NCBI GenBank assembly: GCA_037137755.1
Contig: JBAXJR010000025.1
Location: 1-36,512 of the forward strand
DNA: 36,512 nucleotides
DNA from: Methanomicrobiales archaeon
GTDB lineage: Archaea; Halobacteriota; Methanomicrobia; Methanomicrobiales; Methanospirillaceae
Direction: 5' to 3'
A model generated the notes under the pieces. The model searched no databases, was not told where the DNA came from, and saw only the letters and a program-made list of their open reading frames with translations. The translations under genes and the position numbers were made by a program. This document shows, one piece after another, positions 11,202-31,660 of the stretch. The stretch's first letter is position 1. The number at the start of each line of letters is the position of its first letter.

Positions 11202-11229
11202 AATATAGGTGCCTATATATAGCCTATAG
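11202..11229 (-). promoter_or_regulatory. Candidate Pho-box operator (CTATAG-N16-TATATT, reverse orientation)
   Basis: AATATA-N16-CTATAG 46 nt upstream of the AbrB-PhoU gene; overlaps the inverted repeat GCACCTA-N8-TAGGTGC (11191-11212). Confidence 0.65.
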
Positions 11230-11275
11230 GGGAATAAAGTTTTAGAACAATCAGAATGGATGGGCTGAATCAGAT

Positions 11276-12286
11276 ATGGATATCAGAAAGGTGCAGGTAA
11301 CCGGGGGTTCTTCATACATTATCACGCTCCCAAAGGAATGGATCGAGAAATTACACGTTCAGAAGAATGATCCTCTTGGTCTGATTTCACAGCCGGACGG
11401 GACACTACTTGTCACTAAAAATATCAGCGATGCACAGGTGCAATCAGTCAAGGAATTTGACGTCACCTCGATCAATGATCCGGCTTATCTTTTCAGGCTC
11501 CTGATCGGGGCATATATTGCCGGGTTCACCACGATAAGGATTAAAGCAAAGCACCGGTTCTCACCGTTCGTCCGGCAGGTCGTCCGTGATTTCGCCCAGA
11601 TGACCATCGGTCCCGAAGTCATTGAAGAGACGGATTCCACGATGGTGTTAAAGGACCTCTTAAACCCGATGGAGATGCCGTTTGACAATACGCTCAAGCG
11701 GATGTTTGTGGTTGTAAAAAACATGCAGCTCGATGCCGTTGTGGCTATCGAGACAAACAACCCCACTCTTGCCGATGACGTCATTGCACGGGACAACGAT
11801 GTCGACAGGCTCCACTGGCTGATTGCCCGCCAGATGAACGTGATCCTGAAAAACGTCAATTTGTCGAGGAAGATGAACCTCTCCACATCACTCGTGGTGA
11901 ATACCTACCTGATCAGCAGGATTGTCGAACGGATCGGGGACCACGCGGTCAGGATGGCCGAAAATATGAAAAGGATCACCGATGAGGATATCGGAAAGAA
12001 TACAAAGAAGGCAATACGTACTGCAAATACCATTGCTCTTGCAATTTTCGATAAAAGTATCGTCTCGTTTTTCCAGTCCGATATTGTAGCTTCGCACCAG
12101 AATATCGAGTCAATCACGGAACTTGAGGCAGCGTGTGAACAAATCAACGCCCTTTCTATGGAGATGGGCACCCCGCTCGCAATATCACTTCACTACATAG
12201 CAGAGAGCATTCGGAGGTCCGGGGAGTACGCCGGTGACATATCGGAGACGGTTATCAATTACCTTGTGGAAGAACAGGGTATATAA
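11276..12286 (+). CDS. phoU: Archaeal phosphate uptake regulator (AbrB/SpoVT DNA-binding domain plus two PhoU domains)
   Basis: RKVQVTGGSSYIITLPKEW AbrB N-terminus; RDNDVDRL, VERIGDHA and ESIRRSGEYAGDI PhoU motifs. Confidence 0.93.
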   Translation: MDIRKVQVTGGSSYIITLPKEWIEKLHVQKNDPLGLISQPDGTLLVTKNISDAQVQSVKEFDVTSINDPAYLFRLLIGAYIAGFTTIRIKAKHRFSPFVRQVVRDFAQMTIGPEVIEETDSTMVLKDLLNPMEMPFDNTLKRMFVVVKNMQLDAVVAIETNNPTLADDVIARDNDVDRLHWLIARQMNVILKNVNLSRKMNLSTSLVVNTYLISRIVERIGDHAVRMAENMKRITDEDIGKNTKKAIRTANTIALAIFDKSIVSFFQSDIVASHQNIESITELEAACEQINALSMEMGTPLAISLHYIAESIRRSGEYAGDISETVINYLVEEQGI

Positions 12287-12447
12287 TCCCCATTTCCTTT
12301 TTTTGCGTAGTGCTAACATCGTGCGCGTGAGCCCTTCATAACCTCATAATCGCTTTTTTCGTGGATAACTGCGGAAAATCCTTCATTACCAAGTCATCTG
12401 ATTAAAAATAATTCGGGAAAAAACATATACCGGAAATTTGTATCAAT

Positions 12448-12481
12448 CTATAAAATATATAGTTAATATATAGTAATGTAG
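12448..12481. promoter_or_regulatory. Degenerate Pho-box-like site
   Basis: TATATAG repeated at 11-bp spacing (12456, 12467); reads CTACAT-N16-TATATT on the minus strand. Confidence 0.45.
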
Positions 12482-12544
12482 GTAAATACATAACTTATCC
12501 GGGTGATCTCATTATAGCAGTGCGGGATCACCGAGTGACAGACT

Positions 12545-14158
12545 ATGAAACATACGGACGAAGGGCCGGCCGGGATATTGGAATTTGGTACCCGGCAGGA
12601 GTTCTGGTTTTCTGAAAGCAAGAAATCTGTCCAGACCGGGGATTATACTGGTTCAGTTCAGAAAATTGACAAGGCAATTGCTGCATCTCCCAAAAAGCCC
12701 GAACCATGGCTGCTCAAAGGATATGTTACCTACCACCTCGGCCGTTTTGATGAGGCAGTCCAGTTGTTCGACCACGTCCTGAAACTTGATCCAGGGTTCA
12801 CGAAGGCGCTGTTGTTACGAGGGCTTGCATATATCGCGTTACACCGGTATGAAGAAGCAGTCGGGTCGTGCGACCGGGCACTTATCGGGAACCCTGAAAA
12901 TTCAGAGGGGTGGTATATCCGCGGCCTTGCTTTGAGCAGGCTGGGACTCTACGAAGCCTCAATCCAATGTTACAACCGTGCAATTCTTTTAGCGCCCGGA
13001 TATTCTGACGCATTATACGGGAAAAAACAGGCCGAGAAAAATTATCTGCGGCAGAGAGAGACGTTGGATGAAATATACCGCGACCTGGAACAAGACCCGC
13101 GGAATGTCAAGATCTTAAACCGGATGGGGAAAATACTTGCCACGGTAGGCAGGTTCGAGGAATCACTTGCGATCTATTCCAGGGCTAGGGAAATCGATCC
13201 TGGAAACAGGGATGCTATTCGTGGTTATGATAGTACAGAAAAAAATTCCCAACGATGGGCGGGTCTGCTTATAGAAAATAACAGGGAGGAAAAATATACA
13301 CCTGATACAACACTTGCCGCAGGTGAGGATCGTCCCGTTGAAGCCAGGTCAGATGTCCCACATAATGAAGTATCATGGAACACTGCAGGTATAACTCATA
13401 AGGAACCATGTGCGGCTGCCAGTCCTGCGGTCGAAAACGATGCTGGTGAAACACAATGCCAGATCCAGGCTAGTTTACCAGGTGAGGATATCCAACTATC
13501 TTCTGAATTCTCTATTGAATCTGCATTGGAACTTTCAGGGGACGGGGAATTCCTGGCCGCCATCGAAATGCTGAAACAAATTGTTATTTCCCGCCCGGAT
13601 GACCGGGAACCCGTTATCGCCCTTGCAACAGCGTACGAAACTGCCGGGATGTATTCCGATGCATTATCTGCCTGTGACCGGGCATTACAGATTGATCCGC
13701 AAAATGCTGTATTATGGGGGAAAAGAGGGAAAATGCTCATGAAGACTGGCAGGTTTGAATCCGCCGATGCTGCGTACAGCATGTCTCTTGGCATCAATTC
13801 CGAAGATGCAGGTATTCTCGCTGAACGCGGAGATCTGTTCAGAAAACTCGGGCAATATCCGGAGGCAGAGCAGTCCTATATCAGATCGCTTGAACTTAAG
13901 CCTGACGTTTCCCGGGTTTGGTATCACCGTGGGAAAACCCTTGCCATGCTGAAACGTTACCAGGAGGCAATCGAGGCCTGCGAAATTGCAATTTCCCTTG
14001 ATTATAATTACATTGAGGCCATGACGTACAAAGGATTTCTCCTCTCAAAAATCCAGAGATACCATGATGCGCTGGATGTGTTTGACACCGTGCTGCGTAT
14101 AGATCCCCAATGCAGGGATGCGCAGCGGATCCGCCAGTCCCTTAAAGGGAAGGTGTAA
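12545..14158 (+). CDS. Tetratricopeptide repeat protein
   Basis: Two TPR arrays (W..KG..L..LGR..EA...D.AL..DP) separated by an acidic low-complexity linker. Confidence 0.92.
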   Translation: MKHTDEGPAGILEFGTRQEFWFSESKKSVQTGDYTGSVQKIDKAIAASPKKPEPWLLKGYVTYHLGRFDEAVQLFDHVLKLDPGFTKALLLRGLAYIALHRYEEAVGSCDRALIGNPENSEGWYIRGLALSRLGLYEASIQCYNRAILLAPGYSDALYGKKQAEKNYLRQRETLDEIYRDLEQDPRNVKILNRMGKILATVGRFEESLAIYSRAREIDPGNRDAIRGYDSTEKNSQRWAGLLIENNREEKYTPDTTLAAGEDRPVEARSDVPHNEVSWNTAGITHKEPCAAASPAVENDAGETQCQIQASLPGEDIQLSSEFSIESALELSGDGEFLAAIEMLKQIVISRPDDREPVIALATAYETAGMYSDALSACDRALQIDPQNAVLWGKRGKMLMKTGRFESADAAYSMSLGINSEDAGILAERGDLFRKLGQYPEAEQSYIRSLELKPDVSRVWYHRGKTLAMLKRYQEAIEACEIAISLDYNYIEAMTYKGFLLSKIQRYHDALDVFDTVLRIDPQCRDAQRIRQSLKGKV

Positions 14159-14159
14159 A

Positions 14160-14507
14160 TTGATCAAATCGATTCTTTCAGAGCTCCTTGAAATCCAGGG
14201 AGTCAATATCGCTGCAGTTGTCAGCAGGGATGGTTTTGTTATCGAAAGCACGGCCCTTGGCAAGGTCGATATCGATGCACTTGGGGCAATGACCTCCACC
14301 GGGATACGATATTACGAAATCCTTGGCTACGAGCTCAAAAAAGGAGGGGTCAGGCAGGTGGTGCTCGACCTCAACAAAGGCACGATTATCCTGATCCCTA
14401 TCTCAAACGAAGTATTTATGGCGATCATCACCGATCCAAAGGCAAATACCGGTTTCATCACCCATGAATCGGGAAAAACAAGGGGACGCCTGATGGCTGC
14501 AATGTGA
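14160..14507 (+). CDS. Roadblock/LC7 (MglB-like) protein
   Basis: GVNIAAVVSRDGFVIES, DALGAM and ANTG; TTG start 1 nt after the TPR stop with AGGTG upstream. Confidence 0.88.
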   Translation: MIKSILSELLEIQGVNIAAVVSRDGFVIESTALGKVDIDALGAMTSTGIRYYEILGYELKKGGVRQVVLDLNKGTIILIPISNEVFMAIITDPKANTGFITHESGKTRGRLMAAM

Positions 14508-14510
14508 ACC

Positions 14511-14774
14511 ATGAGACCATTCATCACATTTTTTGGGTTAGTTCTGGTCGTCCCGGGATGGACCCTTCTATCGATAGATCCTTCCGATATCATCAATCCA
14601 CATTTTTCCACCCCTTCCGGATCATTGTTATGGGAATTAATGGGTACTCCACATGATATAGGGCAAATTCATCTCTATGGCCTTGCGGTCATCATGCTTG
14701 GCATAATCATCGCGTTGTACGGTCTGTTAACAACACCCGGTGAAGAAGACAACAGTTCATCGTTAGTAATGTAG
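14511..14774 (+). CDS. Small membrane protein with two TM helices
   Basis: Starts 3 nt after the roadblock stop; two hydrophobic helices. Confidence 0.7.
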   Translation: MRPFITFFGLVLVVPGWTLLSIDPSDIINPHFSTPSGSLLWELMGTPHDIGQIHLYGLAVIMLGIIIALYGLLTTPGEEDNSSSLVM

Positions 14775-15410
14775 AGGCGCAGAAGTAATTTTCATACATC
14801 CCGTTGTATCAAACGAGGGCCTTTGCATGTTTGTGAGGAATTCCCGGGGACCGTCAAACCGGTCCATATTCATAAAACACCCTCCGAGTTCAGGAGGTGA
14901 ATGTGCGTCGGAACCTACAGAGATGGGTTTTTTATGAATTATTGCATATTCACTGGCCATCTGGTTCTCCCCGGCTTTCATCCTCTTCCCGTTATACCCT
15001 TCGATGATATCGACACGTTCAATGATCGAATCGAGGACGGCCAGACCCATCGCCGTACAACGCATCGAGGAGAAGGGATGGGGAACTATCGAGAGGGCTC
15101 CCTGACCGCGGATCCTGTCAAGAGTCTCGGCCGCTGTAAGGGACGGGGAAATTTCCTCAGTAAGGAACAGGCCGATGATCTCTCCTTCGGAGGTCAGGAT
15201 CTCTTCAGCAAGGATCAGGGGGATATCCCGGTCAGTTTTCCTGATCTTCCTGAACACCTCCACAGAGCCGTCGATAGTATCGTGATCGCACACGATGGAT
15301 AGGATTCCCCTGTTTTCCCACAACCTGACAATATCCATGATATCGTTTGTGGAGTCACTGGAATGGTTGGAATGCACGTGCATGTCACATTTCAGAAGGC
15401 CGTTATCCAC
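14763..15410 (-). CDS. PHP-family metal-dependent phosphoesterase
   Basis: DMHVHS, CDHD, AEEI, PHPF, IEGYN and GSDAH motifs. Confidence 0.92.
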   Translation of the reverse strand: MDNGLLKCDMHVHSNHSSDSTNDIMDIVRLWENRGILSIVCDHDTIDGSVEVFRKIRKTDRDIPLILAEEILTSEGEIIGLFLTEEISPSLTAAETLDRIRGQGALSIVPHPFSSMRCTAMGLAVLDSIIERVDIIEGYNGKRMKAGENQMASEYAIIHKKPISVGSDAHSPPELGGCFMNMDRFDGPREFLTNMQRPSFDTTGCMKITSAPLHY

Positions 15411-15507
15411 TAAAAGTTCCTCCGGTACATTACAATATCATCATGGCTGCAACACGAGATACTGCTACAATTTACTCTGTCAATGGGGATCATTCGTAGT
15501 CGCAACC

Positions 15508-15993
15508 TCACCGGTCTTCCTGTGAAGATTGTATTTTTTCAGCAAACACCGCAAGAATTGGATCGCATTGCTTTGCATCCACATCTTTTTCGACTGTGAC
15601 TGCAGAAGCAACAAATTCCATTTCTTTATCTTCCAGTATCTTTTTCACCTTCTCTATGACACCGTCCGCCCCGGATCCGCCCATTTCCACGAGTACCGAG
15701 AACTTTTTTCCTTCACAGTTTTTAAGTTCTGACAGGTATTGCCTGGTATATGGAGGGAGATTATGCGACCAGACCGGGGTTGCAATTACAAGGTGATCGA
15801 TGGTTTTCATATCAACATTGGCAGGCTTTATTGTACTTTTCAACCCAAATAACGCCGTTATTCCCCCTACTAACGGTCTCGTGCCACTCAGCGGTACAAT
15901 CTCAAAAAAGGAGGCATCCAGTTTTTTTGCCAGGTCGTGTGCAACAGTCCAGGTATGCCCTTTCCACGAATAACATGCGATTACAATTTTCAT
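15508..15993 (-). CDS. Flavodoxin-family protein
   Basis: YSWKGHT FMN-phosphate loop, IATPVW and EMGGSG. Confidence 0.88.
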   Translation of the reverse strand: MKIVIACYSWKGHTWTVAHDLAKKLDASFFEIVPLSGTRPLVGGITALFGLKSTIKPANVDMKTIDHLVIATPVWSHNLPPYTRQYLSELKNCEGKKFSVLVEMGGSGADGVIEKVKKILEDKEMEFVASAVTVEKDVDAKQCDPILAVFAEKIQSSQEDR

Positions 15994-16002
15994 GTAAATT
16001 CC

Positions 16003-16497
16003 TCAGTTTTCTTGTTCCTCTGCCAGGATAGCATCTTTCCCGAAGTCCCAGGGTAAGGCCATCTTTCTCGAAGGACTGAATTCCGCCCATGGAATGGCCT
16101 GTACTCCCGCCCCTTCGGGCTGATCCGCAGAAGTGTGGAAAATCTCTCCAAGGGAGATATGAATTTTCACTGGTTTTAAGCGGTGTTCCGAATGTGCCCA
16201 TCCGGGAACTCTTGCAGGTTTCGCCCGCGTACATGTTGAACAGATATTCTGGTGACATTTTTCACACAGTGTGACCAGGTTATCCAGTTCATTTCCCCCG
16301 CCCGTCCCCCTGGGCCAGAAATGGTGAACCGTGAGGAGGTCTGTTGAAGAACACATGCGACAGAAACCGTCCCGGCGAATCGCAGCACGGCGTGCTTCTG
16401 ACCATTTGAGGGGTTTTTCCTTCTGGATATTCACAGGAAACATGGCTGATTTAACATTAACAACCGGGTTGTTGGGCAATGTTTCAAATGGGCTCAT
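16003..16497 (-). CDS. HNH endonuclease domain protein
   Basis: W...R.A..RRDG.CRMC...TVHH..P...GG.N..DNLVTLCEKCH, plus an extra CxxC. Confidence 0.85.
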   Translation of the reverse strand: MSPFETLPNNPVVNVKSAMFPVNIQKEKPLKWSEARRAAIRRDGFCRMCSSTDLLTVHHFWPRGTGGGNELDNLVTLCEKCHQNICSTCTRAKPARVPGWAHSEHRLKPVKIHISLGEIFHTSADQPEGAGVQAIPWAEFSPSRKMALPWDFGKDAILAEEQEN

Positions 16498-16772
16498 TCA
16501 ATTGAAGATTGAAAACAATTGTAAATATATCTTTTCATTATAGAATATATATTGATATATACAATACGCGGTCACCGGCTCAGACTAATCATCATTGCAC
16601 TTCTCCTCAAAACCCATGCCTCTCTCATCATTGCCTTCCATCAATATCCCCACGATTCACTATGCAGGAATCCGGAGAACCTACGGAATTTGCATTGTTC
16701 TCTTTCCTGCTATTATTTTCGCCATTCATGATTATAGGTTGCATCGTTGACCATCCACCCAGTCTCGTCCTG

Positions 16773-17003
16773 TCAACCATCCGGGTCTGGCAGAAATTTT
16801 TCTGCATGTAGTACCAGGGCAACACCACCAAGGATTATACCGTTCACAATGACCAGCTCCAGAATCAATGGAAATAAGGGAGTCATGGGAATGGGACCCA
16901 TCGCGGGTACCAGCAGAAACGGTAATACAAATAAACCTAAGATTACTATCGCCCCTCCGGTATACCTCAACAAATTTACCAGGAAGATAGAGAGGACATT
17001 CAC
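16773..17003 (-). CDS. Small membrane protein with two TM helices
   Basis: 76 aa, strongly hydrophobic; AT-rich motif-bearing DNA directly upstream. Confidence 0.6.
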   Translation of the reverse strand: MNVLSIFLVNLLRYTGGAIVILGLFVLPFLLVPAMGPIPMTPLFPLILELVIVNGIILGGVALVLHAEKFLPDPDG

Positions 17004-17187
17004 AGTGTCTCTTAATCACTTTCGAAATATATTTTTATTCGCAATAGACTATTGAGATATATATAATCATATGGATTTTTTTAACGAGTTCGCGATACAC
17101 GACAGTAATTTTTTGGGTCCTGCCACCATTGAACCCATGGTCACTGCCTGCAATGTTCGTGTTCCTGTTCGATCGCCCTTGTATCGT

Positions 17188-17565
17188 CTACACCAGTAAG
17201 GGGCACATTTTTTGTAATGAAGGATCAATAATGTCAAGATTATAGCATACATCAGAGAACGAGGTCCCCGTGATCCGTATGTATGTTTCTATAAGATCAA
17301 TTGCATTGTGCGGGTGATCCATTTTTAATTGTAACCACCATTCGCCATTTTCAAACGTGGTTTTTATTATCTCCTGGTTTTGATTTCTGTCGGGCACCCC
17401 AGACAGATTCGCTTCTGCAACTTGGTCCGCCCTGCCATGTTCCACTTTTCCAAAATGGTACAGCGTGGACTCTTGTGGTCGTGATTTCGTTTTCTTCTGG
17501 TTCCCTGTCCCTCTCATCCTGATTAGACATGGCCTGATGATATCTTTTGTCACACATTGTGGCAT
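17188..17565 (-). CDS. Hypothetical protein, start uncertain
   Basis: 125 aa ORF with TATA-like TATATATA about 20-28 nt upstream; no recognisable domain. Confidence 0.5.
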   Translation of the reverse strand: MPQCVTKDIIRPCLIRMRGTGNQKKTKSRPQESTLYHFGKVEHGRADQVAEANLSGVPDRNQNQEIIKTTFENGEWWLQLKMDHPHNAIDLIETYIRITGTSFSDVCYNLDIIDPSLQKMCPLLV

Positions 17566-17588
17566 ACATTATTCTTGGGCTCACGTAT

Positions 17589-17616
17589 ATATAGAATTCC
17601 TACATTAAACTATATT
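17589..17616 (+). promoter_or_regulatory. Pho-box-like site with one mismatch
   Basis: ATATAG-AATTCCTACATTAAAC-TATATT, same 16-nt spacer. Confidence 0.5.
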
Positions 17617-18329
17617 AATACCAATAATTTATAGTAACTATATATTATCTGATAGTGAAGTACGGGAGCATACAACGGTGACCAGAAAAAAGAGCTCCTG
17701 ATTTATAAAGTCCCGAAGGGTGCCTACACCAGGTAGGTATTGGCCAGGTGTGCAATGGGGTATCTTAGTTACTGGTTTTTAGTCACCGATGTGACGCCTG
17801 CGTCCTGAACCATCCACTTGATTTTAATTAATAAATAAAACCCCTGCTCCGTGAGAAGAAGGGGGTTCAGGAATAATTCCCTATTTCGAACCAGAAGTGC
17901 AGAATAGCCGCGCCGGTCACGGAGTTGCATGCAAGTGAAAACCATATAGTTTTGCTGCCAGATCTCTATAATTTCCTCAAAATATTGATTGACCGTGGCT
18001 GTGATCCAAAATATTATTTCCACGGTTTTTCGAGATCGGGCAAGGTATGGAAGAGTACAATCACAATATTTACTACCTGATGAACTGAGTACCAGTTGAT
18101 AAGAGATGCCACTTGTTGAGGAAATACCAAAGGACTTGAGGGATACATCGCCCCATGCAGAGGTTATTGAAATTATCATGCCCCATAAAGAATGGCGCAC
18201 GCAAAAGCGGGTCCCTGGGAACCACCCGTACCGGAGAAAAATTTAACTCCTTTTTACCACCCGGCAATCCTGAACCAGGAGACATTAGTTTTTTTATCCA
18301 GGTATGTTCTGATCCGGGAGGATTTGGGT

Positions 18330-18580
18330 TCATTTTTATTAATTGCCAGTTTAATGGAGACTTTCCGGGCTACATCTGTAAATGGTTTCAGGATATAGCC
18401 ATCCGACCTGATTTCCTTCATGTTCCGGAGAACTGAATCCTCCATTGCCATCTAAAGAAAAATTATCGGTACTCCTGATCTTGCCAGTATCTGTTTTGCC
18501 AGGAATCTGTTATCAGTTTTTACACGGAGGGAGATCTCGGTAATTATACAATATGCTGGTTTGAATCCGAGCAACTTTTT
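18330..18580 (-). pseudogene. Degenerate response-regulator receiver fragment
   Basis: Minus strand FKPAYCIITEISLRVKTD...AKQILARSGVPIIFL*MAMEDSVLRNMKEIRSDGYILKPF...SIKLAI; in-frame TAG at 18452-18454; no N-terminus; phosphoacceptor Asp position is Glu. Confidence 0.72.
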
Positions 18581-18585
18581 AAAAA

Positions 18586-18613
18586 CTATAGGGTGAATAG
18601 AGATCAATATATT
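18586..18613 (+). promoter_or_regulatory. Candidate Pho-box operator
   Basis: Exact CTATAG-GGTGAATAGAGATCAA-TATATT. Confidence 0.6.
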
Positions 18614-18780
18614 ATAAAATCAATAAATACATATTTCTCATCGATCCAGATAGGTATGGAGTTCCACAGAATGCGGGTACAACAAGCCAGGCCGGAATAT
18701 CTTGTAATCAGAAACGCAGGACATCCCCTTCATCTTCCGGCCTGCTCTTCTTTTATTTTCGGACTCCTTCAGGTGATGCC

Positions 18781-18999
18781 ATGAGAACACCGGACACGAT
18801 CAGGCTTATAGCCGGATTGTCCGCAATGGCATTTCTTACAATCATAACTCTTAAGACCGCAACATGGTATGGCCTGCCCGATTCCTGGTTGGTCACAATA
18901 CCCATTTTCGCAGGGGTATTTCTCTTCGCCGCAGGTGCCGTGCTCGCCAGAAACTACCGGATAAGACCGGAACATTCCTCAGAAGAACAGATTCAGTAG
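18781..18999 (+). CDS. Small membrane protein with two TM helices
   Basis: AGGTGA RBS before ATG; two hydrophobic helices. Confidence 0.68.
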   Translation: MRTPDTIRLIAGLSAMAFLTIITLKTATWYGLPDSWLVTIPIFAGVFLFAAGAVLARNYRIRPEHSSEEQIQ

Positions 19000-19180
19000 T
19001 AGTGTACGATCAAAAAAATGTCCGGGGCATTGGTCTGCCCCGTTCCTTTTCAGTGGGATCTGCAATTTTGTTTTATAATACAAGCTGACCAATACAATAT
19101 CAAAAAATAATATACGATAGAGTTGCAGAGAACCTGAAGCGTGGTAATTATTATGGAAAACAATGGTACGTGATAATCAT

Positions 19181-19564
19181 ATGAAAGAGTGGATCAAAGG
19201 AACCCTGGGACTCGGCTTAATCCTCTGGCTTTTCGGGTATCTTACATCGATGGTGCTGTTCTTTTCGCCGTTTTCCAGTATAATGGGCTGGATTATTACC
19301 GCCATATTCACCCCGGTTACTATCGTGGTTAGCTGGTGGTGGTTCCGGACGAGGACCCTTACCCTTACCGATTACCTGCTGGTGGGAGGATTATGGACTG
19401 TAATTGCAGTTGTGTTCGACTACCTGTTCATCGTTAAGCTGCTCAGTGCCACGTATTACGGTACCGATGTGTTCGTATACTACATCCTTACATTCCTGAT
19501 CCCTATCGGAGTCGGACTGTACCTGATAAGGACCCAATCGAAGCAATCGACAAAACAGGATTGA
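19181..19564 (+). CDS. Hypothetical membrane protein with four TM helices
   Basis: Four hydrophobic segments; alternative start at 19163. Confidence 0.8.
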   Translation: MKEWIKGTLGLGLILWLFGYLTSMVLFFSPFSSIMGWIITAIFTPVTIVVSWWWFRTRTLTLTDYLLVGGLWTVIAVVFDYLFIVKLLSATYYGTDVFVYYILTFLIPIGVGLYLIRTQSKQSTKQD

Positions 19565-22236: not shown

Positions 22237-24351
22237 TTAGGAATCCTTTGATATCTTCCGGAATTTGCCTGCAGGGACGAATATCTCAAAACGGGCCCCG
22301 GCACCAGGTTCGCCGGTTTCTCGTATGGAAATATTCGTGATAGACAGGATTTCCTGCGTTAAAAACAGGCTGAATCCGTTTATTTTGCCGAAATCATGTT
22401 TAAATATACTTTCCTTCTCTTTCTCCGGGACTCCAACCCCATTATCTTCATAGATAACCTTGAGTCCCGTGCCAGTTTCATGGGTCGAGAGCCTTATTTC
22501 AGTAACATGCTGCCCATGGACAATGGAATTACTGACGAGGTTACACAATGCCTTTTCGAAGAGTGGATCTACAAAAATCTCGACCGGTTGGATATCGATC
22601 ACTTGTTTCAAGGGTAGCATATCAAGATGGGAGATAGCATACTTAAAGCTGATAAGGAGGTCCTGCCACCGGGCGTTCTTGATTCCCAGTTCCTGGTAGT
22701 CGCCGGTAAATTCAATTTGCGATAAAATCGTTTTTGCTGATTTTTCAATTTTATCCGTCATCAGTTTTATATCCGTTTCATCTTTCTTGTGCTTCGATAG
22801 CTCGATATAACCGAATAGAACGGACAGCTGGTTCTTAATGTCGTTCCGGGTGATGGCACTCAGCAGCTGGAGTTTCTTCGTTACCGCCATGAGACTGGCT
22901 TCGTAGTTCTTATGATCGGTGATATCCCTTGCAATACAAAAGAAACCCGGAACTTTCCCTTCACCGATATCTGACTGCTGGGCGCTCACTTCGAATGTGT
23001 ATTTCCTGTCATCCGGACCATTTATTTCCAGTTCAAAGATGTGTGTACCTTCCTCATCCGGATTTACCGTGACACCGTTTAAAAGAACTTCTTTAAAATC
23101 CTCCCGGGTTCCGCACGTGGTAATGAAAGACAATGGTTGACCAACAAACAACCTTGCCTGTAAGGTATCGGCAAAGTGTCTGAGGCGCCTGTTGTAGGAA
23201 AGAAGTATCCCTACCTCATTGATAGAGAAGATGCAGTCATTTGCATTATTCAAGAGGTTTGCATACCGGCTCTCACTTTCTGAAAGCTTCTCCCGGGACT
23301 GGTCGAGGGAGGACAGCATCATGTTTACGGATTCAGCCAGCGATGTGATCTCGTCATTTCCCCGTGGAATTACACGCTCTTTTGGATTACCGTGTGCACC
23401 AATTTGCTGGACTTCCCGGTTCAGGCCGGTAATCCTTGAAATCACGCTATACTCAAGCAGGATGAGAACTACAGCCTCAAAAATAATTCCGACGATCAAC
23501 AGGGACAGCAGGATGTAATTCAGGGAGGCCTGCCCGTACTGGTGGATCGGTCTTGGAGAGGTTACTTCGAGGAAATATCGGGGGGACCCGCTTATATCCG
23601 TAAGAATGTGGTATCCGGCAATCGTTGTGTCAGATATGGGGGTAATCGTTGTATCACCATTCTCCATAGAGGCGGTACTGCTCCCCTGCGGCATCGGATC
23701 GGTCCCTAGCCTGTGAATGGTGACCTGGAATCCCAGGACATTCGATATTTCTCCCAGTGTTGTCGTATCGAGGTTCCGGCCAATGAAAATATACCCGGTT
23801 GTCGTATTCCCGTCAGGACTTGTTACGGGACGGACCGCGATCAACATCGGACCCGACTCAAGATTCAGGATACCGGATCTCTGGCCCAGCGTAGATACTG
23901 GTAATGCCTCGATCCGGTTAAGAAGACTTCGCGGGGTCGGTAGCTGCTGCGATGATTCAAGACTGAAATATTTGTGGGCAATGACATGCCCGCTGGCATC
24001 GAGAATAACCAGCACATTCACTTTCGTGCTCGAAAATTTTTCATCAGGGTACCGGGACAGAATTGTGGAGCTGCCTGGTGAAGCAAGGATACTACGAGTA
24101 TCTTCCGACCCGGCCCATGCCTGTGCAACCGTATCGAGGCGACCCGTCTGGTCCTGGATTACAATTAATGACCTGTTGACTTCATCAACCATTGACTGTT
24201 GTTCAACAGCCGTAAACCCCCCCATCACCTGGACCTGTGAAACGAGAAGAACCGCAATAAGGAGCCCGACAAATGTAGCAGAAATGATAATAAACGTTAA
24301 AAACTGCAGCGAGTTTTTTTTCTTGTTTGCGTTTCCCTTATCCTTTTTCAT
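22237..24351 (-). CDS. CHASE4-HAMP-PAS histidine kinase-like protein lacking the phosphoacceptor His
   Basis: TM, extracytoplasmic WA...T...GYIFIGR domain, TM, HAMP (GNDEITSLA), PAS, H-box ITRNDIKNQL, HATPase. Confidence 0.88.
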   Translation of the reverse strand: MKKDKGNANKKKNSLQFLTFIIISATFVGLLIAVLLVSQVQVMGGFTAVEQQSMVDEVNRSLIVIQDQTGRLDTVAQAWAGSEDTRSILASPGSSTILSRYPDEKFSSTKVNVLVILDASGHVIAHKYFSLESSQQLPTPRSLLNRIEALPVSTLGQRSGILNLESGPMLIAVRPVTSPDGNTTTGYIFIGRNLDTTTLGEISNVLGFQVTIHRLGTDPMPQGSSTASMENGDTTITPISDTTIAGYHILTDISGSPRYFLEVTSPRPIHQYGQASLNYILLSLLIVGIIFEAVVLILLEYSVISRITGLNREVQQIGAHGNPKERVIPRGNDEITSLAESVNMMLSSLDQSREKLSESESRYANLLNNANDCIFSINEVGILLSYNRRLRHFADTLQARLFVGQPLSFITTCGTREDFKEVLLNGVTVNPDEEGTHIFELEINGPDDRKYTFEVSAQQSDIGEGKVPGFFCIARDITDHKNYEASLMAVTKKLQLLSAITRNDIKNQLSVLFGYIELSKHKKDETDIKLMTDKIEKSAKTILSQIEFTGDYQELGIKNARWQDLLISFKYAISHLDMLPLKQVIDIQPVEIFVDPLFEKALCNLVSNSIVHGQHVTEIRLSTHETGTGLKVIYEDNGVGVPEKEKESIFKHDFGKINGFSLFLTQEILSITNISIRETGEPGAGARFEIFVPAGKFRKISKDS

Positions 24352-24422
24352 AGAATCAGCAGCGTCCGGAATCCGAAGATCAGTTGCTCATAACCTTGAA
24401 CTTTATAGTAATTAGAGAATTC

Positions 24423-24465
24423 CAATAGAGAATCTATAGTGATATATTGAATCAATAGACTATGG
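24423..24465. promoter_or_regulatory. Pho-box-like array in the kinase/pstS2 divergent promoter
   Basis: CAATAGAGAATCTATAGTGATATATT closely resembles CTATAGAGTTACTATAGGTGAATATATT at the main pstS; CAATAGACTAT is also found at 17042. Confidence 0.6.
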
Positions 24466-24543
24466 TGCAAAATTTATTGTGTTCCAACGATCAAATGATT
24501 CTCAGGTAATTCTGGACCGCAACGAATTGAAGGAACTTTGAAT

Positions 24544-25557
24544 ATGACGGACGAAACAAAACAGAAGGGACCTCTCCCGGGGAATCTTAAAATTTTGATA
24601 ATTGTAATTATCGCAGCAGTTTTTGTCATGGCAGTTGTTATTGCCATGGTTTTTGTTTCTCCATCAGGCCCAAACGTACATGGGACGAAACCGGTCAGCC
24701 TGAACATTTCAGGTTCAACAACCATCCAGCCGGTTTCGGAATTCCTTGCCAATGCATACATGCAGAACCATCCTGACATCAGGGTCAACGTTGAAGGCGG
24801 TGGATCGGGTGCAGGGATCACGAAAGCCGGCACGGGTCAGATAGATATCGGGTCATCGTCGAGAAATTTAAACCCCGATGAAATTGCAAAATATCCCGAC
24901 CTCCAGACTTTCAAAATCGGCGGCAGTGCGGTGGTTGTCATCGTAAACCGTAATAACCCGGTAAATGAGGCAGATAAGAGCGAACTGCAGGTATTGTATA
25001 ACGATAAATCTGAGGATATTTCGAACCTCCCCAGCCTGGGCAATATCAGATTGACTGTCCAGCGGTCTGATAATTCCGGGACCGAGGAGACATTTGCCCA
25101 GTGGCTTGACCCCAAGTTAACAAACCTGAATGCTGCAATGAATGCAACGGATTATTCTGGTATGGGGCAGGTCAAACCTCTTTCCGTTGAGGGAAATGAA
25201 GGTGTTGTCCAGGCCGTCGCAAAGAATCCAGATGCCATCGGTTTTGCGGATTTCGGTTTTGCGGAACGGGATACCGGAGTAAAAATCCTGAAATTACAGG
25301 AAACTTCATCAGATCCGGCATTACCTCAGGAAATTGCCAATGCAAGGGAACGAATCAGGGAAGAACTGAACCGTGGCGATCAGAATAATACGTACTATAT
25401 ATCCCGCCTTACCCGCCCGCTTCTATATATCACGAAAGGGTCACCATCAACGCTTGAAAATGATTTCATTACCTTCGCCAGGTCAACAGTGGCCGCGAAA
25501 TATTTCGATGATATAGGATATTTCTCCATCACTGAATTCAGTACTTCAGCGAAATGA
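24544..25557 (+). CDS. pstS: Second phosphate-binding protein with N-terminal TM anchor
   Basis: SGSTTIQP, GGGSGAG, SSSR, RSDNSGT and DAIGF; no lipobox Cys. Confidence 0.88.
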   Translation: MTDETKQKGPLPGNLKILIIVIIAAVFVMAVVIAMVFVSPSGPNVHGTKPVSLNISGSTTIQPVSEFLANAYMQNHPDIRVNVEGGGSGAGITKAGTGQIDIGSSSRNLNPDEIAKYPDLQTFKIGGSAVVVIVNRNNPVNEADKSELQVLYNDKSEDISNLPSLGNIRLTVQRSDNSGTEETFAQWLDPKLTNLNAAMNATDYSGMGQVKPLSVEGNEGVVQAVAKNPDAIGFADFGFAERDTGVKILKLQETSSDPALPQEIANARERIREELNRGDQNNTYYISRLTRPLLYITKGSPSTLENDFITFARSTVAAKYFDDIGYFSITEFSTSAK

Positions 25558-25558
25558 C

Positions 25559-25588
25559 CTGGTCCCACTTTTTTGGGGCCGGATTTTT
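25559..25588 (+). terminator. Hairpin plus T-run after pstS2
   Basis: CTGGTCCCA-CTTTTT-TGGGGCCGG followed by ATTTTT. Confidence 0.5.
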
Positions 25589-25650
25589 AAACTGGATATA
25601 GGACCCTCTGGAAAAAATTCATCCGTTCTGCAGGAAATAGTTGTGTTAGA

Positions 25651-26917
25651 ATGTTCCGGCAAAAGCTCTTTTCCCGTCTCAAAATATCCCTTCTTGCCGT
25701 GTTTATCTGCACCCTTGCAGTAATGACTATTTTCGAGTTAGTTAAACAAACCCTGAATCCGGATATCACCGTTTGGCAATCGCATATTGTAACTATCCTG
25801 TCACGAGTGTCCTCGCGCTTATCATCGCTTATTTCACGTTCGAGTCCATTCATGAAGCCCACCGGAAGGCATCGGAAGAACTTGAAAAGAGGATTGCCAC
25901 TGAGGACCTCCTTGTCAAATCGGAAGCTCGGCTCCGCACATTTATTGAGTCGGCAGATGAATCGATCTATACAGTTGACAGCACGGGGAAATACCTATTG
26001 ATGAATACCCGCTACCTCAACCGACTGGGTATTTTACCAGAGGAATTTGAGGGAAAATCCTATGCCGATCTTCATTCACATGAAGATTCCGATAGATTTT
26101 CGACCCTTCTTGAAAAAGTCATTACTAACCGGCTTCCAGTTCAGGATGAATATGAACGTGCGGAAAAATCGTACATACGTCAGTTAAATCCGGTTGTCGA
26201 CCCTTTGACGGATGAAGTTGTAGCAATAACCGTGATTTCAAATGATATAACAGAGCGTAAAAGGGTTGAGAATGCACTCCGCCAGGCCAACAGAAAACTC
26301 AATCTGCTTTCTACTATCACCCGGCACGATATTAACAACCAGCTCACCGTGCTCATCGGATACCTTCACCTTTTCGATAAGGGGGGCCATGATCCCACCT
26401 CAATGAATATTTAGCGAGATCCATCAACGCAGCCGGGCAAATCTCAGACATGATCCGTTTCACTGAGGAATACGAAAAGATTGGTGTTCAGGCCCCTGTA
26501 TGGCAGAATTGCCACGGATTAGTGGAGAATGCCACTGCGGCAGCTCCACTGGGGAAGATGTTTGTTATGAATGATATCCCGGTATAGGCAGATGTATTCG
26601 CCGATCCACTCATAACAAAGATATTTTACAACCTGATAGACAATGCCGGACGATACGGGGGGACGATTACGATGATGCGTTTTTCTGTAACGGAACGTGA
26701 TGGCGATCAGATTCTCATGTACGAAGACGACGGTAAAGGAATACCCGCAGAAGAGAAGGAGAGAATTTTCGAACGGGGATTTGGCAAAAACACCGGCCTC
26801 GGGCTATTTCTATCCCGGGAGATCCTGTCCATCACCGGCATTACCATTAAGGAAACGGGAGAGCCGGGAAAAGGGGCTCGGTTCGAAATGACCATTCCAA
26901 AAGGGATGTACCGATAA
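25651..26917 (+). pseudogene. Disrupted membrane PAS histidine kinase
   Basis: Frameshift near 25800, frameshift near 26395 (other frame continues LNEYLARSINAAGQISDMIRFTEEYEKIG) and in-frame TAG at 26585-26587; H-box RHDINNQL and HATPase end are paralogous to 7739-9409. Confidence 0.88.
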
Positions 26918-27077
26918 TCGTTTTTAATTCCAGCTGTAAAGGGCATTAAAACAAGACATTACCATGCAGGTATCCAAGTTTTAACCATCAATTGTTAATC
27001 ATATGTATCAGATCGCAATTTACCTAGCAATTTCTGATTTAGAACATTAAATCTCTCTTTTTCTGGTATCTATTCTT

Positions 27078-27127
27078 CTATAGAGAGTATATTGTATCCT
27101 ATATTCTAATGCGAAAAAGGGTATAAA
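27078..27127 (+). promoter_or_regulatory. Candidate Pho box plus BRE/TATA of the pst operon
   Basis: CTATAG-N16-TATATT at 27078-27105, then CGAAAAAGGG-TATAAA with TATA at 27122. Confidence 0.7.
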
Positions 27128-27224
27128 CCAGCCCTGCCTAGTGAGTAACAGAATATGGCGCCGGGTATGTTACATGTTAAAATTATTACCACACACCTGC
27201 GGGCAGATGGCGGGGTGATGTGCT

Positions 27225-29174
27225 GTGGCTGAAGACAAATCCTCACCCTCTCTGCAGGTTTTCAAACCTGCCGCAAGGAATATCAAAGAAGGCATGATGA
27301 CCTCATTATGGTTCATATGCGCCGTATTTGCCGTCGTGGTAGTTTGTTTTATCCTCGTATTCCTGCTCTACAATGGCTACCCGGCGTTTTCTACCATCGG
27401 GCTTCCCGATTTCCTTTTTGGAGACACATGGAGTCCAACCGGAAACCCACCTCTTTATGGTATTTATCCACTCATCATTGATACCCTGCTTGTCATGGCC
27501 CTTGCCATGCTGATTGCAATACCCCTTGGTATTGCGAGCGCAATCTACATCAGCGAACTGGCGCATAAAAAAGTCAAGGCTGTTGTGAAACCCGCTGTTG
27601 AACTTCTCGCCGGTATCCCATCTGTTGTGTTCGGGTTCTTTGGGCTTGTTGTACTGACCGAGCTGCTCCGCGTATCGTTTGATGTCCCGAGTGGTGAATG
27701 CTGGCTGGCTGGTTCAATCCTCCTCGGGATAATGGCACTTCCCACAATCATCAGTGTATCAGAAGACGCCATCAGTTCCGTTCCAAAGGAATTCCGAGAA
27801 GGCTCTCTCGCAACTGGTGCAACAAAATGGCAGACAATCAGCAGGGTAGTCGTTCCTGCTGCACTTTCCGGAATTACTGCAGCAGTTATCCTCGGGATCG
27901 GGCGGGCCATAGGAGAGACGATGGCTGTCCTGATGGTAACCGGTAATGCCGCAGTGATTCCATCCCCGATCTGGAACGTCCTTTCCCCGGTCAGGACCCT
28001 GACCGCAACCCTCGGTATTGAAATGGGGGAGGTAGCAGTGGGAAGCCTCCATTATAGTGCCCTTTTTGGTATTGCGGTCGTATTGCTTATTATTACCCTC
28101 GTCATAAACCTGACCGCCTACAAGATCCTCGGGCGGATCAGGGCAGGACAGACCGGTGTCGGGGCGGGTGGCAGAAAGTACCTGTCCCATAAAACAGCAG
28201 ACTCCCTGAAAAAATATGGACTGTATGTGATTGTTGCTCTTACACTCCTGTTTGTCTTTATTGCGGCCGGACTGATTGCAGGGCTTGTATGTATTCTTGC
28301 TGTAATCCTGTGGTATGTACTGAGGGAGAAACTGAACCAGCGCCAGGTGCAGAAAGCTGCGTTCAGCATTTTATGGATTGCAATCGGTGCTGTATTAGTT
28401 ATTCTTGGGTGTATTATTGCCGATATCGTAATCAATGGCCTTCCTGCTATCAGCTGGGAGTTCCTTACCACGGCGCCTAAGAACCTGGGAAGGGACGGCG
28501 GAATTGCACCTGCAATAGTCGGTACTTTCTACCTGGTCCTCGGTGCAATTCTCATTGCATTACCTCTCGGCATTGGTGCTGCAATCTACCTCAACGAGTA
28601 TACCCGCGAAGGCCGGATTACCCGGACGATCCGGACAGGTGTTGACCTGTTAAACGGCACCCCCTCAATTGTCTTTGGGTTGTTCGGGTTCGCATTCCTT
28701 GTCCTCTATCTCAAATTCGGTGTTTCCCTCCTCGCAGGGCAGGTGACACTTGCCCTGATGGTACTCCCCACCATGATCAGGACTGCCGAGGAATCGCTGA
28801 AAAATGTCCCGATGTCAGTGCGGGAAGGGAGTCTTGCACTTGGTGCCACAAAATGGCAGACTGTGAGGAGTGTCGTGCTGCCACCTGCGGTCCCGGGAAT
28901 TATCACCGGAACGATTCTTTCAATCGGGCGGGCAGCAGGCGAGACGGCCCCGATCCTGTTCACGGCGGTGGTGTTTTCATCAAGAACGCTTCCAACCTCT
29001 GAATTTGAACCGGTAATGGCTCTCCCTTACCACCTGTACATCCTTTCAACGAATGTCCCCGGAGCCACGACGAACCAGTACGGGACTGCACTGGTGCTCC
29101 TGATTCTTGTAATCGGGTTCTACCTTGCCGCAATTATCGTGAGACGACACTACCATATGAAAATCCGATGGTGA
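27225..29174 (+). CDS. pstA: Phosphate ABC permease, PstC-PstA fusion
   Basis: Two permease units ([12 protein letters not shown]...[10 protein letters not shown] and [10 protein letters not shown]...GRAAGETAP) in one frame; GTG start. Confidence 0.93.
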
Positions 29175-29179
29175 TTCAC

Positions 29180-29944
29180 ATGACAGAATTTAAAGAAATA
29201 ATCCGGGTAGACCACTTAAATCTCTGGTACGGGGATTCGATTGCCCTCCGGGATATCACAATGGGCATGCCGGACCGCCAGGTAACAGCCCTGATCGGAC
29301 CTTCAGGCTGTGGAAAATCCACCCTGATCAGGTGTTTAAACCGAATGAACGACCTCGTGGAAATCTGCCGGATCCAGGGTGCGGTGAATTTCCATTCCAA
29401 GAACATCTATGCCAGCGATGTCGACCCGGTCGAGATCAGGCGGAAGATCGGCATGGTGTTCCAGCGGCCAAACCCTTTCCCGAAGTCGATTTATGAAAAT
29501 GTCTCCTATGGTCCACGTGTCCATGGCGTTAAGGACAGGAAGGAGCTTGATGAGGTTGTTGAGAAAAGTCTTCGAAGTGCCGCGTTGTGGGACGAAGTAA
29601 AAGACCGGCTCCACGATTCGGCAATGGGCCTTTCAGGTGGACAGCAGCAGCGGCTCTGCATTGCCCGCACCCTTGCGGTAGAACCGGAAGTCATCCTGAT
29701 GGACGAACCCTGTTCCGCACTCGACCCGATTGCAACGGCAAAGATTGAAAGCCTTATTGAAGAGTTAAAGACCGAGTATTGTGTCGTAATCGTCACCCAC
29801 AACATGCAGCAGGCGTCGCGTGTAAGCGATTACACAGGATTTATGTACATGGGTGAACTGGCTGAATTCGGGACAACCAGACAGATATTCGAGAACCCGC
29901 ATGAAACGCTCACAGAAAATTACATTACCGGAAGATTTGGATAG
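29180..29944 (+). CDS. pstB: Phosphate ABC transporter ATP-binding protein
   Basis: [32 protein letters not shown] and ENYITGRFG; GGTGA RBS before ATG 29180. Confidence 0.97.
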
Positions 29945-30603
29945 TGATTCTGGTGTCAGATAAATTCCACGATGAAATTTCAGCCCTTCGCCAGGACGTT
30001 GTCATAATGGCCCGCTTCGGAAGGGATATGCTTAACGATTCGATGACCGCCCTGCAACTACAGGACGTGGAGATGGCGAACGAGGTAAAATCCAGGAAAA
30101 CATCCCTTTCAGAGCAGCATGATTCCCTTGAAGATCGGGTCTTCACGATGATTGCACTCTACCAGCCGGTTGCAAGGGACCTCCGGACGCTGGTATGTTC
30201 GCTCATGATCGTCCAGGCAAGCGAACGGATCGGGCGTTACGGGAAAGATATTGCAAATGCAACAAGACACCTTTCAGACACAGAATCTACGGGTAATTTC
30301 ATCAGCATCCCCCATATGGGAGAGCTGGTCATAGAGATGATCGATGATGCCATTCTTGCTTATGAACAGGAAGATCTCACAAAAATAGAAGATATGTCAA
30401 AACGGGACGATGTGGTCGATTCACTCAGGACCTCGATATTTCGTGAATGTTTGACATACATGATGGAAGACCCGCGTACCATCACCCGGTGCACGCACTA
30501 CGTCATGATCTCCCGCTTCCTTGAACGGAGCGGGGACCATGCATGTAAGATGGCGGAAAAAATCAATTACATGGTCACCGGTGAACGGATCGAGATAAAA
30601 TAG
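29944..30603 (+). CDS. phoU: Phosphate transport accessory protein PhoU
   Basis: IALYQPVARDLR, ERIGRY, RDDVVD and LERSGDHA. Confidence 0.95.
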   Translation: MILVSDKFHDEISALRQDVVIMARFGRDMLNDSMTALQLQDVEMANEVKSRKTSLSEQHDSLEDRVFTMIALYQPVARDLRTLVCSLMIVQASERIGRYGKDIANATRHLSDTESTGNFISIPHMGELVIEMIDDAILAYEQEDLTKIEDMSKRDDVVDSLRTSIFRECLTYMMEDPRTITRCTHYVMISRFLERSGDHACKMAEKINYMVTGERIEIK

Positions 30604-30630
30604 CCCCTGAAAAGAAAAAATGGAAAAACT

Positions 30631-31059
30631 ATGAAGGCCACAGGACCCGGTAAAAAAAGCATTTTGTTTCTTTGTAGTTATAACTCCGTACGATCGCAAA
30701 TCGCCGAGGGTCTCATGCGACATGAATTTGGTACCCGGTACGACATCTACAGTGCTGGTGTTGCAAGTGGCGGGGTAAGTCCTCATGCCGTCGCGGTTAT
30801 GAAGGAGATCGGGATTGACATATCCAGCCAGCGTTCAAAATCCATCAATGAATTCAAGGGACGGACCTTCGACGTGGTAGTTACCCTGTGCGACCATGGA
30901 AAAGAGGCCTGCATCTCCTACCTTCCAAAAGGAGACCTGGTCCTTCATCATAATTTTCCCGCTCCGGAAGAGGTAGGTGTCCCGGAAGAGGAGATCGTGA
31001 AACAATTCAGGGACCTGCGGGACCAGATTAAAACATGGCTGATACACAAGTTCGGATAG
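30631..31059 (+). CDS. arsC: Thioredoxin-type arsenate reductase / LMW phosphatase family
   Basis: LFLCSYNSVRSQIAEG P-loop and VVTLCDHGKEAC redox Cys pair. Confidence 0.85.
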   Translation: MKATGPGKKSILFLCSYNSVRSQIAEGLMRHEFGTRYDIYSAGVASGGVSPHAVAVMKEIGIDISSQRSKSINEFKGRTFDVVVTLCDHGKEACISYLPKGDLVLHHNFPAPEEVGVPEEEIVKQFRDLRDQIKTWLIHKFG

Positions 31060-31230
31060 CCAGGATACTCTACTCTTTTTTTCGGTTCTTAAAGAATTTT
31101 TTTGAGAAAGGATTGAAAAAACGGATCCCAACGTGGTTTCCTTGTCTTTTCCATTCACGATAGAACCCCGTAAGGATATGGTTATCCCTGGTCCAGGAGT
31201 TACCAGCCACGGTAATTTTTAAGGTTTTTA

Positions 31231-31280
31231 CTATAGAGACAATAGAGACACCTATATTCTTTAGTGAATAAGCCTATATC
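31231..31280 (+). promoter_or_regulatory. Candidate Pho box plus TATA-like element without an adjacent gene
   Basis: CTATAGAGA-N11-CCTATATTCT, the same arms and spacing as at 27078; TATATC at 31275. Confidence 0.62.
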
Positions 31281-31609
31281 CTATTGAACCAAGAGATTAT
31301 CTGTGGAGTACCTGGCTCATAATGGTCATAGTACCCCGGTAGGACACATGGACTCTCCATCCATGGGACAGAACATCCAGCTTATAGTCCTTGAAGGGAA
31401 TTAAAAATCCAGGTACTCCTTTTCGTGCATCTGTCTTGTAAATCACACGGATTCCTGATTCTGCAGGTATTTTAGATTGCTGATCCCCTTCTTTACAACC
31501 ATTCATGCGTATCCTGTTTCTAAATGTCATAATTTAAGCATATATCCAGTTTATATCAGATTTTCAGGGTTTCTATATTCCGGCGGAGTGTCAATCAGAT
31601 GAAAATTAA

Positions 31610-31660
31610 CTATAGAGTTACTATAGGTGAATATATTTTCTGTCGAGAATTAGTATATAT
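31610..31660 (+). promoter_or_regulatory. Candidate Pho box plus TATA of pstS
   Basis: CTATAG-AGTTACTATAGGTGAA-TATATT at 31610-31637; TATATAT at 31654. Confidence 0.7.

Follow-up and report, generated by a model that had tools for sequence, protein, structure and literature searches.

A candidate Pho box of phased CTATAG/ATAGAG repeats in a Methanomicrobiales archaeon and its possible link to an AbrB-PhoU regulator

Which cis-element might control the phosphate genes of a methanogen? We considered a stretch of DNA of 36,512 nucleotides (nt), hereafter the window, which is contig C25 of the 106-contig assembly GCA_037137755.1 of a Methanomicrobiales archaeon (designated G000; 2,642,294 bases, 90.6% complete); we call G000 a methanogen because it encodes McrA. 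An earlier note on the window had proposed that the pattern CTATAG-N16-TATATT is an archaeal Pho box. Our analysis supports the conclusion that phosphate genes carry this motif as a specific cis-element and that it does not arise merely from the AT-richness of the DNA. The candidate operator to which it belongs is a cluster of three to four boxes of the types CTATAG(A/G)G, ATAGAG and TATAT(T), lying 8-12 nt apart. On the evidence of sequence comparison, we put at roughly 0.55 the probability that a small, local phosphate regulon has this motif in its operator and that the operator is bound by an AbrB-PhoU fusion protein, which would activate the pst genes and repress its own gene (11276-12286, plus strand).

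The pattern and its promoter modules

When both strands of the whole assembly were scanned, five exact matches were found in the window, at 11202-11229 (minus strand) and at 18586-18613, 27078-27105, 31231-31258 and 31610-31637 (plus strand), whereas none of 100 dinucleotide-preserving shuffles of the window contained any. These are the five intergenic matches listed in the earlier note, and the coding fraction is 0 at each. The genome holds only seven exact matches, the other two being C1:13709 and C13:32637, and six of the seven lie in pst loci. The third TATAG-like box that had been noticed in the spacer is present at all five window sites, as TATAG, ATAGAG or TATAT, with an offset of 9 or 11 nt relative to the first one. 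Exactly 16 nt downstream, as the note had stated, a strong TATA-like hexamer follows at 27078 (TATAAA), 31231 (TATATC) and 31610 (TATATA), with weaker hexamers in the same position at 18586 (CATATT) and at 11202 on the minus strand (TTAAAT).

We then used a matrix of 58 positions whose training set was 11 modules, all from relatives, with all G000 sequence left out, and counted hits above 12 bits. Among 5,272,504 G000 positions there were nine such hits, all within the two pst loci: both pstCA promoters; both pstS promoters, of which one gave two hits in overlapping registers; 31223; 11180 (minus); 18578; and a newly found site at 24409 (minus). The single box is not generally enriched between genes, ATAGAG/CTCTAT occurring at 0.45 per kb in non-coding and 0.35 per kb in coding DNA. 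Non-coding pairs of ATAGAG 7-13 nt apart, by comparison, occur only twice in the genome, both times at Pho promoters. Outside the boxes, the five window modules are 28-48% identical to one another (random expectation, 25.5%), far below the 67% of a true paralog pair, and are therefore not recent duplicates of each other.

The pstCA promoter module (27070-27127, plus; 58.3 bits) comprises, in order, a CTATT box, CTATAG (27078), a TATATT middle box, TATATT (27100), a sequence resembling the B recognition element (BRE), CGAAAAA (27112-27118), and TATAAA (27122-27127). The pstS module (31602-31659, plus; 54.4 bits) reads CTATAGAG (31610), CTATAGG, TATATT (31632), BRE-like CGAGAAT (31644-31650) and TATATA (31654-31659), and the pstS ATG at 31688 follows about 29 nt after the TATA. 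The second pst locus of the genome, on contig C1, has a paralogous AbrB-PhoU gene (88% identical) divergent from pstCA-pstB-phoU-LMWP-pstS, where LMWP is a low-molecular-weight (LMW) phosphatase-like gene. The exact match C1:13709 lies in the divergent AbrB-PhoU/pstCA spacer, in a paralogous module at C1:13701 that scores 81.5 bits, and the C1 pstS promoter carries a variant module with a 14-nt spacer. At 27078, 31610 and C1:13709, the TATA hexamer comes 16 nt, and a BRE-like CGA(A/G)AA(A/T) approximately 6 nt, after the end of the last box. The boxes thus stand immediately upstream of BRE/TATA, the placement of archaeal activator sites, with transcription starts predicted from the sequence. 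They form phased direct repeats at intervals of 8-12 nt ahead of the core promoters of pstCA and pstS.

The earlier note had assigned both 31231 and 31610 to pstS. This holds for 31610, which directly precedes the gene, but 31231 precedes a conserved structured non-coding element of 128 nt (31300-31427, plus), closed by an 11-bp helix and followed by UUUU. The module at this site (31223-31280, plus; 43.9 bits) reads CTATAGAG-ACA-ATAGAG-ACACC-TATATT, then 16 nt and TATATC, and we take it to be the putative promoter of the element. An alignment of the module from G000, G006, G012 and G003 shows no change in the middle AATAGAG, in TATATT or in TATAT, whereas the first box takes different forms (CTATAGAG, ATATAGAG, ATATATAG) and the spacers have diverged. 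The element itself occurs in the same four genomes, in two copies in G003, and always just upstream of pstS. The 11-bp helix of its ends is kept in all five copies. Across the alignment, 96.2% of cells pair, five pairs change on both sides, and the covariation score is 0.312, against 0.220 for shuffles (none of 500 reached it) and at most 0.131 when partners were slid. The fold of the single sequence is no better than that of shuffles (z = -0.67), and the structural support comes from the five-copy alignment only. A covariance model of the element gave no further copies in 101 genomes of the family; Rfam has no family for it, the only match being a weak one to snR75 (E = 0.86) elsewhere in the spacer. 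We also considered a small open reading frame (ORF) under 31229-31427 and rejected it, because indels whose lengths are not multiples of three disrupt all reading frames among the four genomes. The element could be a small RNA or else a long leader of pstS. The sequencing runs that contain the locus are freshwater and lake metagenome DNA, with no RNA run listed.

A separate observation concerns C13:32637-32664, the sole exact match outside the pst loci. It precedes a lipoprotein-like gene (C13:32077-32634, minus), with TATATT at TATA-box distance from the gene start, and has neither a middle box nor a TATA 16 nt further on. The same 28-mer is found, identical, at G012:C141:581-608.

Conservation of the boxes in the genus, the order and the phylum

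Our sample of the order comprised 41 genomes: G000, 12 other genomes of its genus (G001-G012) and 28 relatives outside the genus. A full-length AbrB-PhoU match was found in 36 of the 41, G000 included (the G011 match covers only the PhoU domain), and PstS in 38. The 12 genomes of the genus contain 14 exact matches to the pattern, 13 of which immediately precede AbrB-PhoU, pstCA, pstS or the RNA element, so that the motif is present at orthologous promoters, as the earlier note had expected. By gene coordinates, seven precede AbrB-PhoU and two precede pstS; three precede pstCA (one verified, two assigned from gene order) and one precedes the RNA element. The fourteenth is the 28-mer shared with contig C13 of G000.

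Might the pattern nevertheless have been a chance one, picked out after the fact from AT-rich DNA? The motif was indeed derived post hoc, and a reversed control pattern is about as frequent in these genomes (10 matches against 14), which means that the signal lies in the placement of the matches rather than in their number. That placement at Pho promoters, the empty shuffles and the recovery of Pho loci alone by a matrix that had left G000 out all speak against chance, and we regard this explanation as already refuted.

Outside the genus there were three exact matches in the 28 genomes, none on a contig with AbrB-PhoU or pstS, and we therefore consider the 28-nt pattern to be genus-specific. 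AbrB-PhoU and pstS are divergent neighbours in 18 of these 28 relatives. In the divergent spacer, read from the pst side, CTCTAT(A/G) boxes at intervals of approximately 10 nt are followed by a central TATATATA and by a TATAG(T)/TATATT box; the pst TATA comes 16 nt after the latter, and a BRE-like (T/G)CGA(A/G)AA word lies within those 16 nt. This architecture was read by eye from alignments, and a strict regular expression matched 8 of 30 loci. We also compared k-mers with shuffles in one 160-nt region upstream of AbrB-PhoU per genus, for 16 genera other than that of the window. The words that ranked highest were GAAAAA/CGAAAA, which is BRE-like, and ATAGAG. The latter was found in 13 of the 16 genera (shuffle mean 2.8, maximum 8), and CTCTATA in 8 (shuffle mean 1.07). 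Thirteen ATAGAG occurrences run in the direction of AbrB-PhoU and five in reverse, mostly 10-25 nt downstream of a TATATA run. The pattern proposed in the earlier note is thus real but belongs to the genus, and what is kept across the order is a core: an ATAGAG/CTATAG box repeated approximately 10 nt apart.

Of the 81 genomes sampled from the phylum, 62 have a full-length AbrB-PhoU homolog, and the distant homologs have phased CTATATA-type boxes upstream, a pattern that was read post hoc. In four genomes of another family (L075, L077, L079 and L081), AbrB-PhoU, a small Cys-rich ORF (C-x-D-C-I-F-W-Y-Q-C-R) and pstS lie on one strand, and a TTCTATATA(G/T) box stands before each of the three. TTCTATATAK has 61 matches in these four genomes, of which 7 are inside AbrB-PhoU/pstS loci, and its reversed control has 72; because the word was taken from the same loci the check is circular, and we treat it as a regulatory word only as a lead.

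The AbrB-PhoU promoter and models of phosphate control

The candidate regulator is a protein of 336 amino acids (aa), identified by Pfam as an AbrB/SpoVT-PhoU fusion. Residues 7-48 match MazE_antitoxin (PF04014) with 43.5 bits, above the cut-off of 24.7, and thus constitute an N-terminal swapped-hairpin domain of the AbrB/SpoVT/MazE type. The PhoU domain scores 73.4 bits, and the full-length model TIGR02135 (phoU_full) scores 59.6 against a cut-off of 130.25. In the Protein Data Bank (PDB) only relatives of the PhoU domain were found, 1T72 and 1XWM.

The box cluster at this gene (11180-11237, minus; 28.0 bits) includes the exact match at 11202-11229, which reads on the minus strand, away from the gene. 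On the plus strand the site is AATATAGG-TGCC-TATATATAG-CC-TATAGGGG and ends 47 nt before the AbrB-PhoU ATG. Flanked by boxes in the orientation of the gene, TATATATAG is probably its TATA box. The earlier note had placed the motif just upstream of BRE/TATA, which is true of the pst-type promoters but not of AbrB-PhoU, where the boxes overlap the region from TATA to the start. An element that overlaps the TATA-to-start region of its own gene is in the position of a repressor site. In the orthologs L002, L003 and L008, which have lost the neighbouring pst operon, the boxes are kept and the far-side flank with its TATA is not; the 11202 site therefore serves AbrB-PhoU and not a minus-strand transcript. 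More generally, the boxes stay with the AbrB-PhoU gene where the pst operon no longer adjoins it (L001, L002, L003 and L008), and this independence of the pst neighbourhood would fit autoregulation by AbrB-PhoU.

We propose AbrB-PhoU as the candidate binder because its gene is next to the boxes and the boxes follow the gene when pst is elsewhere, and because an AbrB/SpoVT DNA-binding domain is fused to PhoU and no PhoB-type protein was found. That the protein binds the boxes would follow from conserved adjacency only. A profile search of G000 (90.6% complete) gave no Trans_reg_C (PF00486, PhoB-type), and the control search matched 10 bacterial genomes; the only domains of the response regulator encoded in the window (34739 onward) are REC, GAF and PAS. 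AbrB-PhoU might act as a one-component regulator, its AbrB domain recognizing the phased boxes as an oligomer and its PhoU domain conveying the phosphate status. From sites upstream of BRE/TATA it would assist the recruitment of TBP/TFB at the pst-type promoters under phosphate scarcity; on its own promoter, it would repress its own gene. It is the positions of the boxes that lead us to favour this combination of activation at pst and autorepression.

Could the true binder be another transcription factor, with AbrB-PhoU merely one gene of a real phosphate regulon? The link of the protein to the boxes through adjacency alone leaves room for such a factor. In the regions that we read, however, no other DNA-binding gene is conserved beside these loci, the boxes follow AbrB-PhoU when it is separated from pst, and its distant homologs also have the phased CTATATA-type boxes described above, albeit recognized post hoc. 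We consider another binder improbable.

A second alternative is that AbrB-PhoU binds the boxes and represses everywhere: under phosphate-replete conditions, oligomers would cover the boxes and BRE/TATA of pst, the RNA element and the AbrB-PhoU gene, and starvation would release them. The overlap of the operator with the AbrB-PhoU TATA-to-start region agrees with this, as do further ATAG boxes that overlap the BRE/TATA of pstS in G008, G009 and G001 (L040-L042) and the mainly repressive role of the AbrB and MraZ relatives. At the window promoters of pstCA, pstS and the RNA element, however, 16 nt separate the end of the boxes from TATA, and the BRE is left uncovered. Placement upstream of BRE/TATA is described as typical of archaeal activators in the portion of PMC6737238 that we consulted, and the accessible part of PMC6560208, citing Furtwangler 2010, reports that the pho-boxes of Halobacterium are needed for upregulation. 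Both statements argue against repression throughout, which we hold to be unlikely.

A third possibility involves no specific regulator at all, the boxes being tandem or back-to-back TATA/BRE elements for TBP/TFB that go back to an ancestral promoter shared by divergent pst and AbrB-PhoU. The boxes do resemble TATA; in the divergent loci, box 3, which follows A-rich bases, and the central TATATATA resemble AbrB-PhoU core promoters; and the TATATT of C13:32637 lies where a TATA box would. Against this, ATAGAG and the G of CTATAG are not features of a TATA box, yet they are the best-conserved words apart from the BRE, and the module is found only at Pho loci among approximately 2,400 gene calls, themselves approximate. 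The one-way promoters (31231, 31610 and 18586) keep the boxes, with a middle box of the ATAGAG type rather than TATATATA, and the boxes are conserved while the spacers diverge. We judge this explanation very unlikely.

Several points weigh against an AbrB-PhoU operator with activation at pst. The training set of the matrix includes orthologous promoter sequence, and its top scores partly reflect orthology. Exact ATAGAG is missing in 3 of the 16 genera (L017, L023 and L024), and among five pstS promoters outside the genus that lie apart from AbrB-PhoU, ATAGAG/CTCTAT is present in two (L045 and L050) and not in L054, L056 or L060. The 18586 site is without comparative support, the only homologous contig (G006) ending before it. 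Since the boxes resemble TATA, the sites of a regulator and the basal elements are not cleanly separable, and what we read as the third box and the central TATATATA of the divergent loci may be no more than the AbrB-PhoU BRE/TATA. Finally, AbrB-family proteins are mostly repressors, which argues against the activating half of the proposal.

How does the candidate operator compare with known systems? MraZ, a member of the AbrB superfamily, has an operator of several short direct repeats approximately 10 nt apart at its own promoter. The likeness to MraZ/AbrB operators consists in a SpoVT/AbrB-type domain in the candidate binder and in short phased boxes over the promoter of the regulator; here, however, the domain is fused to PhoU, the system is archaeal, and the same boxes also occur upstream of BRE/TATA at other promoters. 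Archaea are not known to have the bacterial PhoR/PhoB pair. The bacterial PhoB/PhoP Pho box, in its familiar layout, likewise consists of direct repeats about one helical turn apart upstream of the pst core promoter, and its regulon also includes the locus of the regulator itself. It differs in the class of binder (Trans_reg_C was not found in G000), in the core promoter, which here is an archaeal BRE/TATA, and in a consensus that, as generally given, does not resemble CTATAG/ATAGAG.

Within Archaea, the closest parallel is Halobacterium salinarum. As far as the consulted part of PMC6560208 goes, cis-elements in its pst1 and pst2 promoters, the pho-boxes, are tied to phosphate-dependent induction, and the presumed binder is a PhoU-type protein with a DNA-binding domain, a candidate only, as in our case. 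The methanogen element, which we liken to these pho-boxes by description and not by sequence, differs in belonging to a methanogen order, in consisting of phased CTATAG/ATAGAG boxes 16 nt from TATA, and in also covering the promoter of the regulator and that of a structured RNA. The available portion of the same paper describes sRNA132 of Haloferax volcanii as a phosphate-starvation-induced small RNA that controls pst operons. The element at 31300-31427 would resemble sRNA132 as a non-coding RNA linked to pst, with a Pho-type promoter, but it may be a pstS leader and not trans-acting and is confined to four genomes; the two are likened without sequence comparison. Phosphate enters archaeal cells through Pst systems inducible by starvation. 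The pst-phoU genes of Methanosarcina mazei are induced by phosphate starvation according to the section of PMC6864096 that we consulted, which also calls the regulation of polyphosphate genes in Archaea unknown. Our literature search found no paper describing a methanogen Pho box, an AbrB-PhoU operator or a characterised AbrB-PhoU protein. An archaeal pho-box is already known from Halobacterium; we regard the methanogen version as a well-supported cis-regulatory prediction with a candidate binder.

On a wider scale, we tentatively suggest that AbrB-PhoU might be the one-component phosphate regulator of methanogens and of the phylum, the boxes and the protein having changed in step (with ATAGAG in this order and CTATATA in another family), and that, judging by position, it might activate pst, repress itself and switch on a lineage-specific structured RNA; we rate this as somewhat doubtful. 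A defined operator, a candidate regulator found across the phylum and positional predictions (boxes preceding BRE/TATA in pst promoters and covering the promoter of the regulator) together make phosphate control in Archaea directly testable, and the finding points to a possible phosphate-controlled RNA.

Gene content and minor sites of the window

Genes were named by Pfam and NCBIfam profile searches, which bore out the names AbrB-PhoU, pstCA and pstS given in the earlier note. The pst operon (27225-31059, plus) consists of a PstC-PstA fusion encoded by a single gene of 649 aa (27225-29174), PstB (29168-29944), a separate canonical PhoU (29944-30603; 173.1 bits) and an ArsC/LMW-phosphatase-like protein after phoU (30631-31059), all on the plus strand. 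It is followed on the same strand by PstS (31688-32656) and the exopolyphosphatase Ppx (32825-34489). The C1 locus repeats the fused pstC-pstA and the LMW-phosphatase-like gene after phoU.

Two further sites of the window scored lower. The module at 18586-18635 (plus; 17.9 bits) reads CTATAG-GGTGAATAGAGATCAA-TATATT, then 16 nt and CATATT. Downstream of it are a hairpin with a T-run at 18655-18770 (fold z = -2.3), whose arms are CAGGCCGGAA and TTCCGGCCTG, and a 72-aa two-helix membrane ORF at 18781-18999; the hairpin has no match in Rfam. We infer from the sequence a transcript of 18655-18999 from the 18586 promoter, which might represent a second small RNA or a leader subject to attenuation. 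The near matches that the earlier note had placed at 12454, 17026, 17589 and 24423 fared unequally. At 24404-24466 there is a weaker cluster of TTATAG, AATAGAG, CTATAG and AATAGAC, followed by GCAAAATTTATT, which at 15.9 bits is one of the nine genome hits of the matrix and lends weak support to 24423, whereas the other three have no support from the matrix. The mismatches to the pattern number one at 17589, two at 12454 (minus) and two at 24431/24434, and at 17026 there is no match within two mismatches.

The 24404-24466 cluster lies between a gene for a CHASE4-HAMP-PAS histidine kinase (minus) and a divergent gene for a PstS-like binding protein (24538-25557, plus), an arrangement of 22237-25557 in which ATAG boxes are clustered between the two genes. 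The CHASE4 kinase/PstS-like pair may represent a second phosphate-sensing route. Further on, a PAS-domain ORF (25773-26414) and a separate HATPase_c fragment of 81 aa (26672-26917) resemble a split or decayed histidine kinase. In 16003-18440, a gene for an HNH endonuclease is followed by doubtful ORFs of no family and AT-rich spacers with TATAG-like words (17026 and 17589), and this region may be degenerate or mobile. We considered the ORFs 17188-17565 and 17769-18200 as members of the regulon and rejected them, both being doubtful and without a family match. At 9481-11275, a Cdc6/Orc1 gene (minus) adjoins an AT-rich stretch and an ORF of no family (10698-11015), a possible replication origin neighbourhood. 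At the beginning of the window, positions 1-52 hold the 3′ part of a tRNA gene (Rfam RF00005, 36 bits) that is cut by the window start.

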